From a virus (lineage: Duplodnaviria; Heunggongvirae; Uroviricota; Caudoviricetes): 15,507 nt of DNA. Location of the stretch: positions 1-15,507 of IMG/VR virus record IMGVR_UViG_2563366806_000001. One strand, written 5' to 3'. This document shows positions 1 to 15,507 of the stretch, piece after piece (the first letter of the stretch is position 1; every line of letters begins with the position of its first letter). Both the position numbers and the translations under genes were made by a program. The notes beneath the pieces are model-generated. The model had not been told where the DNA came from. It saw only the letters and a program-made list of their open reading frames with translations, and did no database searches.

Positions 1-179
1 AGTCGCTGTCGTTCTCAAAATCGGTGGAGCTGCATGACAAAGTCATCGGGCATTATCTGAACATAAAACACTATCAATAAGTTGGAGTCATTACCGCCAG
101 AGTTAAGGATGAACTTGAAGGAGAAACCTACGAAATTTTCGTAGGTCAAAAAAACGGCGCAGAAATAGATATTATAACA

Positions 180-701
180 ATGACCTACAAACAAGCCCTG
201 CGAGTTGCCGCGCGCGAGTCAAAAGCGGTCCGCCGTTCGCTGATCGACAAACTGGAAGAATTACAGCAGGCAAACTCCCCTACCCCATCGATCCCCCAGA
301 CATTACCAGAAGCCCTACGCCTGGCTGCCGAGTTAGCAGAACAGAAAATGCAGTTGGAACAACAGCTGGTGGCCGCAGCCCCTAAAGTCGATTTTGCCGA
401 CCGGGTATCAGTGGCCAATGGAATCCTGATCGGGAACTTTGCAAAGGTCGTTGGACTTAAGCAAAACGCCCTTTTCTCATGGTTGCGCCAGAACGGCATT
501 CTCATGGCTTTTGGTGCGCGCAAAAACGTATCGCACCAACAGTACATCAACGCCGGGTATTTCACGGTGAAAGAAGTGGTGTTGGATGATGAAAATGGCT
601 ACCAGATACGGCTGACGCCCCAATTAACGGGTAAAGGCCAGCAGTGGTTAACTCGCAAGCTACTTGATGCTGGTTTGTTAAAACCAGTAGCAATAGGTTA
701 A
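180..701 (+). CDS. KilAC (antirepressor C-terminal) domain protein, 173 aa
   Basis: ATG 180 to TAA 699-701. Residues ~37-170 align without gaps to the C-terminal 134 aa of the KilA ORF at 865-1665 (87/134 identical, counted by eye; shared IPQ[TS]LPEALRLAA[ED]LAEQK and TGKGQQWL). No clear Shine-Dalgarno upstream; same-frame TAA at 78-80. Confidence 0.7.
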   Translation: MTYKQALRVAARESKAVRRSLIDKLEELQQANSPTPSIPQTLPEALRLAAELAEQKMQLEQQLVAAAPKVDFADRVSVANGILIGNFAKVVGLKQNALFSWLRQNGILMAFGARKNVSHQQYINAGYFTVKEVVLDDENGYQIRLTPQLTGKGQQWLTRKLLDAGLLKPVAIG

Positions 702-713
702 CAAAAGAAAAAA

Positions 714-738
714 CCTGCCAGCAAACTGGCAGGTTTCT
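714..738 (+). terminator. rho-independent terminator after the KilAC ORF
   Basis: Stem CCTGCCAG (714-721) / CTGGCAGG (726-733), loop CAAA, followed by TTTCT. Confidence 0.6.
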
Positions 739-743
739 GAGCA

Positions 744-766
744 GATCGACCAACCCGATCTGGATC
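744..766. promoter_or_regulatory. cluster of three GATC (Dam) sites just upstream of the kilA control region
   Basis: GATC at 744-747, 757-760 and 763-766. Confidence 0.4.
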
Positions 767-778
767 GAGTTAGAAAAA

Positions 779-795
779 TTTGCTCTAATAAATTT
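779..795 (+). promoter_or_regulatory. C1-repressor operator-like site upstream of kilA
   Basis: TTTGCTCTAATAAATTT matches the recalled P1 C1 operator consensus ATTGCTCTAATAAATTT at 16/17 positions, about 70 bp upstream of the kilA ATG. Confidence 0.55.
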
Positions 796-864
796 CGTTT
801 TCTAAGTGCAAAGAATCACCATTTCGAGCTGGTGATTGAAGGTTGATGCAAATTTGGAGAAAAA

Positions 865-1665
865 ATGCAACAAACATTCAATGCGGATATGAATATATCA
901 AACCTTCATCAAAATGTCGATCCTTCAACCACTCTTCCCGTTATTTGTGGTGTTGAAATTACGACCGACCGCGCTGGCCGTTACAACCTTAATGCTCTAC
1001 ACAGAGCGAGCGGACTCGGTGCCCATAAAGCGCCAGCTCAATGGCTAAGAACGCTGTCAGCTAAACAGCTCATCGAAGAGCTTGAAAAAGAAACTATGCA
1101 GAATTGCATAGTTTCGTTCGAAGGCCGTGGCGGCGGCACTTTTGCCCATGAATTGCTCGCAGTGGAGTACGCTGGTTGGATTTCTCCCGCGTTTCGGCTG
1201 AAGGTAAACCAGACATTTATCGACTATCGAGCTGGAAGATTACAACCTGCTATTCCGCAGAGTCTCCCTGAAGCTCTCCGTTTGGCTGCCGACCTGGCAG
1301 AGCAAAAGCAACGGCTGGAGCAAAAAATGCTTATGGATGCACCTAAAGTCGAATTCGCCGAACGCGTTGCTACCGCCAGCGGGGTTCTAATCGGCAACTA
1401 TGCCAAAGTGCTCGGCCTGGGCCAAAACTATCTCTTCACCTGGTTGCGTGATAACGGAATTCTGATCGCAACCGGTGAACGCAGGAACGTCCCCAAACAA
1501 GAATACATATCCCGTGGGTATTTCACCCTTAAAGAAACCGTGATCGATACAAGCAATGGAAGCAGGATTTCTTTCACGACTCGTATAACCGGCAAAGGTC
1601 AGCAGTGGCTGATGAAGCGATTGCTTGATGCTGGTGTGCTGGTACCTGTCGCGGCAACGCGCTAA
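865..1665 (+). CDS. kilA: KilA (KilA-N domain plus KilAC domain), 266 aa
   Basis: SD GGAG 854-857, ATG 865. N-terminal KilA-N-like segment (PVICGVEITTDRAGRYNLNALHRASG). Length and position directly upstream of repL match the P1 lytic replicon as recalled. C-terminal domain paralogous to ORF 180-701. Confidence 0.8.
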   Translation: MQQTFNADMNISNLHQNVDPSTTLPVICGVEITTDRAGRYNLNALHRASGLGAHKAPAQWLRTLSAKQLIEELEKETMQNCIVSFEGRGGGTFAHELLAVEYAGWISPAFRLKVNQTFIDYRAGRLQPAIPQSLPEALRLAADLAEQKQRLEQKMLMDAPKVEFAERVATASGVLIGNYAKVLGLGQNYLFTWLRDNGILIATGERRNVPKQEYISRGYFTLKETVIDTSNGSRISFTTRITGKGQQWLMKRLLDAGVLVPVAATR

Positions 1666-2666: not shown

Positions 2667-2707
2667 TTCTATAGAAAAAAAGCCAGACATTGATACAATC
2701 GCTGCGG
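2667..2707 (+). promoter_or_regulatory. putative hok/mok promoter and mRNA 5' end
   Basis: -10-like TACAAT at 2694-2699. Predicted transcript 5' end GGTGCTTGAGG (2707-2717) resembles hok-family mRNA 5' ends. Confidence 0.35.
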
Positions 2708-2761
2708 GTGCTTGAGGCTATCTGCTTCAGGCATTACCCGAAAAGCAGATAGAAGAAAGCC

Positions 2762-2827
2762 CCAGATAACATTACGCGTCCTGCAAGACGCTTAACATTA
2801 ATCTGAGGCCATATCTATGCTTAGCAT
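2762..2827 (-). ncRNA. sok: candidate Sok-like antisense RNA (antitoxin); ends approximate
   Basis: Minus-strand promoter: -35 TTGACC (complement of 2856-2861), 16-bp spacer, -10 GCTAAT (complement of 2834-2839). The transcript would be antisense to the mok SD and start (ATG 2817). Weak hairpin GCGTC/GACGC around 2777-2792. Confidence 0.35.
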
Positions 2828-3023
2828 ACGTAGATTAGCCTCTTACCGACCAAAAGGTCAAGGAGAAGCAGGCTATGAAGCAGCAAAAAGCGATGTTAAT
2901 CGCTCTGATCGTCATCTGTTTAACCGTCATAGTGACGGCACTGGTAACGAGAAAAGACCTCTGCGAGGTACGAATCCGAACCGGCCAGACGGAGGTCACT
3001 GTCTTCACAGCCTACGAATCTGA
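2817..3023 (+). CDS. mok: Mok-like leader ORF overlapping hok in a different frame, 68 codons
   Basis: SD GAGG 2805-2808, ATG 2817, TGA 3021-3023 (7 nt before the hok stop). Nested arrangement is typical of hok/mok/sok loci. Confidence 0.5.
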   Translation: MLSIRRLASYRPKGQGEAGYEAAKSDVNRSDRHLFNRHSDGTGNEKRPLRGTNPNRPDGGHCLHSLRI

Positions 3024-3030
3024 AAGGTAA
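2875..3030 (+). CDS. hok: Hok/Gef-family type I toxin, 51 aa
   Basis: SD AAGGAG 2860-2865, ATG 2875, TAA 3028-3030. Hand translation: MKQQKAMLIALIVICLTVIVTALVTRKDLCEVRIRTGQTEVTVFTAYESER. Single hydrophobic helix plus the conserved RKDLCE..R.G..E..F.AYE tail of Hok/Gef/RelF proteins (closest to HokD/HokC as recalled). Below the ORF-track size cut-off. Confidence 0.85.
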   Translation: MKQQKAMLIALIVICLTVIVTALVTRKDLCEVRIRTGQTEVTVFTAYESER

Positions 3031-3042
3031 GAGACCTGGCGG

Positions 3043-3053
3043 GGAGAGATCCC
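3043..3053. repeat. IS186 target-site duplication, left copy
   Basis: GGAGAGATCCC, identical to 4392-4402. Confidence 0.75.
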
Positions 3054-4391
3054 ATAAGCGCTAACTTAAGGGTTGAACCATCTGAAGAATGCGACGCCTC
3101 GGTGCCTCGTTAAGACGATGCCTCGCGTTCTTCAATTGCGTTTTGTAGGCTGTCAGGGATACTGTCCCACGAATGGCCACCTGTAAGCTCCAGATGACCA
3201 TTTTTGTTATTCTCCACAACGAGTTAGTTCTTCTTTTCGGATCCGGCACTTCTGGGGGGGAAATCCAGCGATGGCTGGATTATGTCGTCAATTAAAAATG
3301 CGGCGAGTAGATTAGCAAATATCCACGCTTTCGCGAGTTCAGGTTCCTTTGCACGCAAAGCATCCAGGTGCAGCAAACTTTTGAGCCGCTTAAAAGCCAG
3401 TTCAATTTGCCATCGCAGACGGTAACAATCAGCCACTTGCTCTGCTGAATATTCATCTTCCGGTAATGATGTTAGCAATAGCACATGGCCCGCTGCTTCC
3501 AGCGTTTCCGCCTGAACTACTCGTCCTTTTCGACGATTCTCGCTGAGCAGTCGGGTTTTACTGATTAATGCTTTTTCGGGAGGAAGTGATACGGCAATGA
3601 GACGTGCCGGAAAGGGAGCTCCGGCTTTTTTATTACCTGAATTGCCTATCATTACAGTGGTTTCACCGTTCTTACCGCAATCCAGCCCGCGCAGAAAACC
3701 CATCATGTCAAAGCGCATTCCTTCTGCAGTTAACCAGCGCAATCCTCGCCAGTGAACCCGGACGATATAATCAGCTTCTCCAAAAGCAAGTGAGCGGATA
3801 CATTCGGGACGCGAACCGAATCCCCGGTCAGCAATGCGTATCTCGTCTGCCGTTTGCGCAAATCGGTCCAGCCGTTCAGCGTCTCTGCTGTCGGTTAGCT
3901 CAAAATCAGTGAACTGACAGGTATGAGGATCATATCCCATATGTAGTCGCCATTCAGCGCTGCCGCCCCCGGGCGCACTGATTGCTGTTCCATCGACAAG
4001 ACGCAATCTCTTTCCGCTTGTACAACCCGTAACTGCGGCGCGTACAGCAAGTGTTTGTGCGGCAAGTATGCCAAACCAGTCGGCGGCATTCCGCAGCCGC
4101 TTCAGGAGAGCCACGTCAGATAATGTTGCAACGTCATGGAGCTGAGCCCATGCAGTGACTTCACGTAATGACATCCCCCCGGGGCCGTAAGCCAGCCCCA
4201 GACGTAGCAGAGTTGCAGCATCACGAATTTCGCGGCGGCGGGTTAGAGCCCCGGCATTACGTGCCGAAGTATCCAGTTCTTCGGGCTTACCAATATGGGC
4301 CAGAATTGCTGACCAGTTATCGTGAGAGTAATTCATCGGCACGTTAAATCATATCAGGCGTAATACCACAACCCTTAAGTTAGCGCTTATG
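3054..4391 (-). mobile_element. IS186 insertion sequence (IS4 family), complete, 1338 bp
   Basis: Perfect 23-bp terminal inverted repeats CATAAGCGCTAACTTAAGGGTTG at 3054-3076 and (complement) 4369-4391; single transposase ORF; flanked by an 11-bp direct repeat. Confidence 0.9.
3224..4336 (-). CDS. insL: IS186 transposase, 370 aa from ATG 4336 (ORF track extends to GTG 4342)
   Basis: Protein MNYSHDNWSAILAHIGKPEELD...YRLRWQIELAFKRLK... recognised as IS186 InsL; fills the element between its inverted repeats. Confidence 0.9.
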   Translation of the reverse strand: MNYSHDNWSAILAHIGKPEELDTSARNAGALTRRREIRDAATLLRLGLAYGPGGMSLREVTAWAQLHDVATLSDVALLKRLRNAADWFGILAAQTLAVRAAVTGCTSGKRLRLVDGTAISAPGGGSAEWRLHMGYDPHTCQFTDFELTDSRDAERLDRFAQTADEIRIADRGFGSRPECIRSLAFGEADYIVRVHWRGLRWLTAEGMRFDMMGFLRGLDCGKNGETTVMIGNSGNKKAGAPFPARLIAVSLPPEKALISKTRLLSENRRKGRVVQAETLEAAGHVLLLTSLPEDEYSAEQVADCYRLRWQIELAFKRLKSLLHLDALRAKEPELAKAWIFANLLAAFLIDDIIQPSLDFPPRSAGSEKKN

Positions 4392-4402
4392 GGAGAGATC
4401 CC
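4392..4402. repeat. IS186 target-site duplication, right copy
   Basis: GGAGAGATCCC, identical to 3043-3053. Confidence 0.75.
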
Positions 4403-4426
4403 CGCCACTCTTCGTGTGTCAGGTAT

Positions 4427-14849: not shown

Positions 14850-15386
14850 TTACTGTGCCGCTTTGTTTAATTCATCAAGAACAGAATCAGGAACCAAAGC
14901 GGCAACTGCGCTGGCTGTGCTGACCTTATTTGCTGATGCTTCCGCAAGCGCGGTACCGATAGCATGGTTATAAGCAGTTATGGCTACGTTGGCGCTTTCA
15001 TTCGCTCGTTCATACTGCTGTTGTAACGCAGTTGTGGGCGTTGTTGTCTGGTTGAAAACAACCCCAAACTGTTCAGTTGCTACTTTCAGAGATTCAATTT
15101 GCTCTTCTGTTAGTGCTGGTGGGGGAGTGGCAGTGCCGCCGCCTGAACCAGAGCCTGACGAGCTTCCTGAGCCAGTATTAAGGGTCTGGTTAATCTCCCC
15201 CATAGCAGCGACTAAACTTGATGTATTAAGCGCGTTAACAGCGTCCTCAAGCGATTTAGTAATATTCACATCACCAATGGCAATAGAGATCGGCAGTTCT
15301 GAAACTTCTCGCTCATTAGCACGGCAGTAAACATCCCAACCAATATCGAGTTGAAGCAGCATTGACAGATCTGCATAACCAGCCAA
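14850..15386 (-). CDS. hypothetical protein with Gly/Ser-rich linker, 178 aa (start uncertain)
   Basis: ORF-track start is TTG (complement of 15384-15386) with no convincing SD. Internal linker TGSGSSSGSGSGGGTATPPP separates two Ala-rich segments. Same-frame stop upstream at 15474-15476. Confidence 0.45.
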   Translation of the reverse strand: MAGYADLSMLLQLDIGWDVYCRANEREVSELPISIAIGDVNITKSLEDAVNALNTSSLVAAMGEINQTLNTGSGSSSGSGSGGGTATPPPALTEEQIESLKVATEQFGVVFNQTTTPTTALQQQYERANESANVAITAYNHAIGTALAEASANKVSTASAVAALVPDSVLDELNKAAQ

Positions 15387-15507
15387 CAGGTCCGCGTGCT
15401 TAGTTGCCAGTTCTCCAATGTTCGTTAAGTCGGTTGTGGTTGTTCTTATCGTTGAAACGGTGATGCTGCCAACTTACTGATTTAGTGTATGATGGTGTTT
15501 TTGAGGT

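Follow-up and report, generated by a model that had tools for sequence, protein, structure and literature searches.

The left end of the window (the whole stretch of DNA that was analysed, 15,507 nt) carries one end of an insertion sequence, an incomplete antirepressor gene and the genes kilA and repL. The order ant–kilA–repL is that of phage P1, and the P1 record places ant directly upstream of kilA, as the earlier note on this DNA had stated. The following features were assigned.

1–95, plus strand: right end of IS1B; the window begins within the element, and its right inverted repeat (...ATCAATAAGTTGGAGTCATTACC) ends at base 95
3–80, plus strand: last 25 codons of IS1 insB and its stop codon TAA (78–80), from Pfam and the end of the RefSeq CDS
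96–701, plus strand: ant pseudogene remnant, codons 144–344 plus the stop of a 344-aa P1-family antirepressor, Ant (tblastn, alignment, RefSeq)
96–104, plus strand: GCCAGAGTT, one copy of the reconstructed 9-bp IS1 target-site duplication, ant codons Ala-Arg-Val 144–146; the same 9 bp stand before the IS1 left end in plasmids with the reciprocal junction
180–701, plus strand: ORF of 173 aa, starting at an ATG that is the first ATG/GTG/TTG in the open frame of the remnant
357–665, plus strand: KilAC domain (Pfam ANT, PF03374) of the ant remnant, residues 93–195 of the translation of 81–698, E=5e-30
709–738, no strand assigned: hairpin with a 13-bp stem between ant and kilA, terminator-like on the minus strand by scan
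779–795, plus strand: C1 repressor operator Op53/OrepL (TTTGCTCTAATAAATTT), overlapping the kilA–repL promoter
865–1665, plus strand: kilA, intact, 266 aa (KilA-N and KilAC by Pfam), in the same position as in P1
1695–2540, plus strand: repL, lytic replicon initiator, with the length and position of P1 repL

Megablast divided window positions 1–900 cleanly at base 95/96. Bases 1–95/96 matched IS1 or sequence annotated as IS1 transposase at up to 100% identity in many records from phages, plasmids and E. coli chromosomes, and the translation of 3–77 matched the Pfam family DDE_Tnp_IS1 (E=9.5e-10) over profile positions 107–131 of 131. Over its 15,507 bases the window showed two mismatches to plasmid pExPEC1 (NZ_JBYPZB010000002.1), from an E. 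coli strain from mussels. In pExPEC1 the element is a complete IS1B of 768 bp (L004:15328-16095) with both canonical terminal inverted repeats and a transposase annotated in RefSeq with a programmed frameshift. The RefSeq CDS ‘IS1-like element IS1B family transposase’ ends at L004:16080, which is window position 80, and the 15 nt from there to the IS1 terminus are the tip of the right inverted repeat. The local element is thus like IS1 (IS1B) in its 768-bp length, in its canonical ends and in an insB that ends 15 nt before the terminus.

The frame of the 173-aa ORF is open from 81 to the stop at 699–701 and is closed upstream by TAA at 78–80; stops occur at 58/64 and at 35 in the remaining forward frames, so that the earlier reading of an open frame from 81 to 701, with stops in every frame within the first 80 nt, was correct. 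The ‘same-frame stop’ itself is the stop codon of insB, and it falls in the ant frame by coincidence, with a chance of one in three.

To the right of the junction, Ant residues 144–344 matched window 96–698 at 99% (tblastn and protein alignment). Window 96–900 was 98.9–99.6% identical to the uninterrupted ant–kilA region as found in phage RCS47 and in many P1-like IncY plasmids, and from about position 174 on the window was 97% identical to P1 and P7. The intact gene in pTetA_020022 encodes 344 aa and lies after icd (L002:3572-4606). ANT/KilAC was the only domain found by Pfam in the upstream ORF, in agreement with the earlier description of 180–701 as essentially a KilAC domain on its own. 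RefSeq (PGAP) annotates a pseudogene at L004:16099-16701, equivalent to window 99–701, as ‘phage antirepressor KilAC domain-containing protein; incomplete; missing N-terminus’, and a pseudogene annotation with ‘missing N-terminus’ was present in two records, those of pExPEC1 and of a Czech clinical plasmid. Region 96–701 is almost certainly the inactive 3′ part that IS1 has left of ant, the P1-type antirepressor gene of the immI region. It is an ordinary pseudogene, annotated as such in RefSeq, and all its components are of types already well described.

The earlier note had offered two origins for the ORF, a short natural paralogue or the C-terminal remnant of a larger antirepressor truncated by a nonsense or frame change. 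The remnant of a larger antirepressor was upheld, but the proposed cause was not, the gene having been cut at codon 143/144 by IS1. Inactivation of ant by a point nonsense mutation or frameshift, with the 5′ part of the gene still lying upstream of 78–80, would agree with the stop at 78–80 sharing the frame of the ORF. It is nevertheless highly improbable, given that IS1 and not ant is found upstream of base 96, that the stop belongs to insB and that ant 5′ sequence is absent from the whole of pExPEC1 (described below).

The other origin, a natural stand-alone KilAC paralogue of KilA translated from ATG 180, draws on the intact 173-aa ORF with its complete Pfam ANT domain and on the occurrence of the same ORF in at least 10 records. 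All of those records, however, bear the identical IS1 junction at 95/96. At least 80% of window 1–900 was covered in 442 E. coli records. Of these, base 96 was crossed, among the matches listed, only by nine, each with the IS1 junction; the other listed matches reach upstream no further than 96 or 172–180. The intact, IS-free relatives examined encode an ant of 344–347 aa in which ATG 180 is an internal Met codon; it corresponds to Met172 of Ant, within the conserved stretch ITMTYKQALRVAARE common to P1 Ant, and all full-length matches to window 1–900 bear the IS1 junction. An unrelated intact gene ending at 78–80 and relatives carrying the 173-aa ORF had been named in the earlier note as what would mark an ordinary small paralogue; such a gene does end there, namely insB, but relatives carrying the ORF as a gene were not found. 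With the pseudogene annotation in RefSeq and the missing expression signals given below, there is hardly any chance that the ORF is a natural short paralogue, and annotation should treat 180–701 neither as a gene nor as a new KilAC paralogue.

In comparison with P1 ant1/ant2 (immI; NC_005856 48688-49731), the remnant occupies the same place directly upstream of Op53–kilA–repL, its C-terminal 171 residues (from the conserved ITMTYKQ) are nearly identical to those of P1 Ant and it has the same KilAC domain. Its residues 144–171, in contrast, are those of the RCS47/pTetA_020022 variant and unlike the P1 variant. Window 96–179, which encodes these residues, is a short variable patch that differs strongly between the P1/P7 and the RCS47/pTetA-type Ant proteins and includes a 3-aa indel. 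Outside the patch the two types of Ant agree closely, with about 93% identity before residue 144 and near-identity after residue 171. IS1 is located exactly at the start of this patch.

IS1 generates a 9-bp target duplication and is well described as causing adjacent deletions and inversions. In pExPEC1 the 9-bp flanks of the local IS1 copy are unlike, ACCCGTTCG on the left and GCCAGAGTT on the right, and the element is therefore at present no simple insertion. A simple insertion still in place was accordingly rejected, there being no 9-bp duplication around the local copy. The junction expected on the other side of an ordinary insertion was assembled as a query of 320 nt, comprising 160 nt of ant ending in GCCAGAGTT and the first 160 nt of IS1 (left inverted repeat, IRL). 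This predicted reciprocal junction was found at 99.7–100% identity over 320 nt, with seven records at 100%; it occurred in nine E. coli genomes, from isolates of chicken, human, seawater and hospital origin, and in five plasmids of PLSDB, four of them identical with records among the nine.

Two of the reciprocal plasmids were examined (L011 and L012). In both, ant is annotated in RefSeq as ‘phage antirepressor Ant; missing C-terminus’, and in pPK8568-122kb, one of the two, an intact icd lies shortly before it. The IS1 copies (L011:9161-9928 and L012:9161-9928) are joined at their right ends to window position 2629, which means that the 3′ part of ant, kilA and repL have been deleted; the deletion amounts to 2,533 bp and corresponds to segment 96–2628. 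The reciprocal ant fragment ends ...NNDFIARV and the remnant in the window begins ARV..., these three codons being the duplicated target. The target duplication GCCAGAGTT was thus put together across lineages from two reciprocal junctions, never within one molecule. Apart from the separation of the two target halves, which now occur only in different plasmids, nothing distinguishes this case from ordinary IS1 insertions. The collections searched contained no record with both junctions, and among the matches listed the two sets of records did not overlap, so that a single ancestral insertion is favoured by parsimony, short of proof.

The same records bear on whether the junction was produced by assembly, as a chimeric contig end in which a collapsed IS1 repeat was joined to ant. 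The window starts and ends within IS1 copies, as contigs from short reads often do. An artefact is still the least probable of the explanations considered, and vanishingly so, because the identical junction lies inside at least 10 independent assemblies, full-length IS1 and further leftward sequence were present in the three junction loci examined, and the reciprocal junction with the matching 9-bp target duplication occurs in other plasmids.

Whole pExPEC1 (209,383 bp) was rebuilt from five pieces and then searched by BLAST for the c4–icd–ant 5′ region. This region was absent from the complete plasmid, the sole match being a diverged second module (54% aa identity). The idea that the two halves of ant had merely been parted by a composite transposon or an inversion was rejected on this result, the 5′ half being nowhere in pExPEC1. 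To the left of the local IS1 lies IncA/C mob sequence (mobH/mobI) without ant. A second copy of IS1B, in inverted orientation (L004:13475-14242), lies 1 kb to the left of the remnant's IS1 (L004:15328-16095), and the two copies flank a mobH fragment. They share a split 9-bp repeat, ACCCGTTCG, which is the IRR flank of one copy and the IRL flank of the other; such a split repeat is the signature of IS1-mediated inversion or recombination between inverted copies.

The second immunity module of pExPEC1 is intact (L004:4967-7432) and comprises the c1 repressor and, on the opposite strand, an isrK-like RNA, C4 RNA, icd and ant. Its Ant has 372 aa and is 54% identical to the truncated Ant, so that the plasmid has lost one antirepressor and kept another of a different type. 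Similar extra icd–ant homologues have been reported in pSvP1, and homologues of this kind near the res–mod position are a point of agreement with the IS-rearranged P1-like (IncY) phage-plasmids (PMC6906374).

In the history that appears most economical, one IS1 insertion would be the source of both sets of junctions. IS1B would have entered ant at the boundary of codons 143 and 144, with duplication of the 9-bp target GCCAGAGTT, and IS1-mediated deletion or recombination would later have left descendants with one junction each, the left or the right. In the lineage of the window, a later IS1-mediated rearrangement may have swapped everything to the left of the element for the unrelated IncA/C mob sequence, with the loss of ant codons 1–143, icd, C4 RNA and the c4 promoters; the order of these events is the one that we infer. 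Rearrangement of the immI/kilA/lytic-replication region by IS elements has been described as common among P1-like plasmids (PMC6906374), and IS-mediated loss or replacement of that region (RD-3 in that study) is shared by the plasmid with the remnant and the IncY phage-plasmids described there. The pExPEC1-type plasmid (209 kb) differs from those phage-plasmids in being, by its gene names, a P1-derived replicon and not a prophage: no P1 phage-morphogenesis gene names were present in the RefSeq annotation of pExPEC1. The loss of the immI antirepressor next to kilA–repL is a further sign of an IS-degraded P1-derived replicon as opposed to an inducible prophage. The IS1/ant junction and its reciprocal might be used as markers in tracing lineages of IncY-derived plasmids; beyond correct annotation the importance of the remnant is slight.

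The signals for expression of ant lie on the missing side of the break, and among those lost are the C4-processed leader and translational coupling to icd. In the P1 record, ant1 extends over 48688-49731 with the in-frame start of ant2 at 48937, and both starts are upstream of the position of the break; the same is true of icd (‘apparently required for expression of ant’), of the C4 antisense RNA and its target sites, and of the c4 promoters. A full-length Ant frame with the Ant1 start and the in-frame Ant2 start was not found in the remnant, which holds residues 144–344 only. Rfam placed C4 and the a1b1 target upstream of the intact ant of pTetA_020022 (L002), and detected no C4 RNA in the window, where sok was its sole match. 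No Shine–Dalgarno sequence precedes ATG 180, as had been noted earlier; none of GGAG, GAGG or AGGA occurs in the preceding 29 nt (AAAACGGCGCAGAAATAGATATTATAACA). A consensus scan of 1–900, a crude one that also missed the known PkilA, gave no promoter-like site, and the best −35/−10 pair at the IS1 end was weak as judged by eye. The remnant is presumably not translated.

Four junction-bearing remnant sequences were compared. Two substitutions, P289S (nt 531) and R290H (nt 535), are common to the junction-bearing copies and lie inside the motif NVP[RK]Q. Intact Ant, P1 Ant and KilA (NVPKQ) all retain this motif; as the second Ant has NVPFQ, the Pro of the motif is invariant. R183L was added in one lineage. 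All three substitutions are nonsynonymous, two of them in the motif, which points towards relaxed constraint, although two to three changes since truncation are too few for statistical proof of decay. With respect to P1 ant, then, the remnant consists of codons 144–344, without the Ant1/Ant2 starts, icd, C4 RNA and c4 promoters, and carries P289S and R290H.

These data also bear on a role for the truncated gene. IS1 insertions can create outward promoters, and the remnant might be expressed from transcripts that read out of IS1 or start at a hybrid promoter formed at its end. Transcription beginning within IS1 or at its edge, followed by translation from Met172, would then yield a polypeptide consisting of KilAC alone, which might modulate either the toxicity of KilA or the C1/Ant circuit of the second module, for example by interfering with KilA, the second Ant or C1. 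The open frame from 81 to 701, the complete domain and the retention of the junction in plasmids from several countries and sources are in line with such a product. There is also a precedent in staphylococcal phage phi11, in which the C-terminal KilA-type domain of Gp07 alone was reported to be growth-inhibitory when overexpressed (PMC5944126). Against it stand the lack of a promoter-like site and of a Shine–Dalgarno sequence, the weak −35/−10 pair, the nonsynonymous nature of all the substitutions, one of which hits the otherwise invariant Pro, and the loss of the entire segment 96–2628 in the reciprocal lineages; hitch-hiking with the adjacent replicon explains the persistence of the junction. 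Expression of the fragment by either route is accordingly improbable, as is a modulating activity of its product, if somewhat less so than a point mutation or a natural short gene, and an inactive remnant is the preferred reading.

The similarity between the ORF and KilA was confirmed. An ungapped count by eye had given 87/134 identities, or two-thirds, to the C-terminal half of KilA, and BLASTP gave 88/136 (65%), ungapped, with E=1e-66. The KilAC half of kilA (nt 1318–1626) and the KilAC of ant are paralogues, with 63% identity between them at the DNA level, which indicates that the duplication is old and not recent. In direct protein comparison, P1 Ant1 and P1 KilA were 52% identical over 205 aa and about two-thirds identical over the KilAC core. 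Neighbouring KilAC genes are hence the native P1 arrangement, and the proposal that the KilAC module had been duplicated locally was not borne out; domain sharing between ant and kilA has long been known for P1. The remnant and P1 KilA are 65% identical in KilAC, whereas KilA, an intact protein, comes with a promoter and operator of its own and an N-terminal KilA-N domain, none of which the remnant possesses.

The gap between ant and kilA is 163 nt. The hairpin within it lies in a region colinear with the P1 sequence downstream of ant and is native to P1-like genomes; it may mark the end of the ant mRNA and/or that of the antisense P53as RNA. Positions 779–795 match the P1 feature ‘monovalent C1-controlled operator OrepL’ exactly. 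RepL (1695–2540) carries the RefSeq names ‘MarR family transcriptional regulator’ and ‘helix-turn-helix domain-containing protein’, which could mislead automated readers.

Further to the right, a ‘membrane domain protein’ pseudogene of 117 nt occupies 2577–2693. A hok/sok type I toxin–antitoxin system at 2706–3030 (Rfam sok 2706–2880, 115 bits; hokD 2875–3030) follows repL at the place where P1 has rlfA/rlfB. IS421 (IS4 family) extends over approximately 3037–4407, with its transposase on the minus strand (3224–4336), and is present in the reciprocal plasmids L011 and L012 in the opposite orientation relative to its surroundings.

At the right end of the window, 15459–15507 are the first 49 bases of the left end of an IS1 oriented like the one at 1–95, and this second IS1 cuts the gene at 14850–15458 (minus strand; RefSeq ‘missing N-terminus’). 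Direct IS1 copies thus bound a block of 15.4 kb with the order ant′–kilA–repL–hok/sok–IS421–parBA–repA, which could be an IS1-bounded translocatable segment with the whole IncY replicon or a contig broken at repeats. The same IS1/ant′ junction was found in E. coli NCTC11129 (NZ_LR134222.1 4714646-4715545), in a record of 5.0 Mb, where a plasmid segment has either integrated into the chromosome or been assembled into it.
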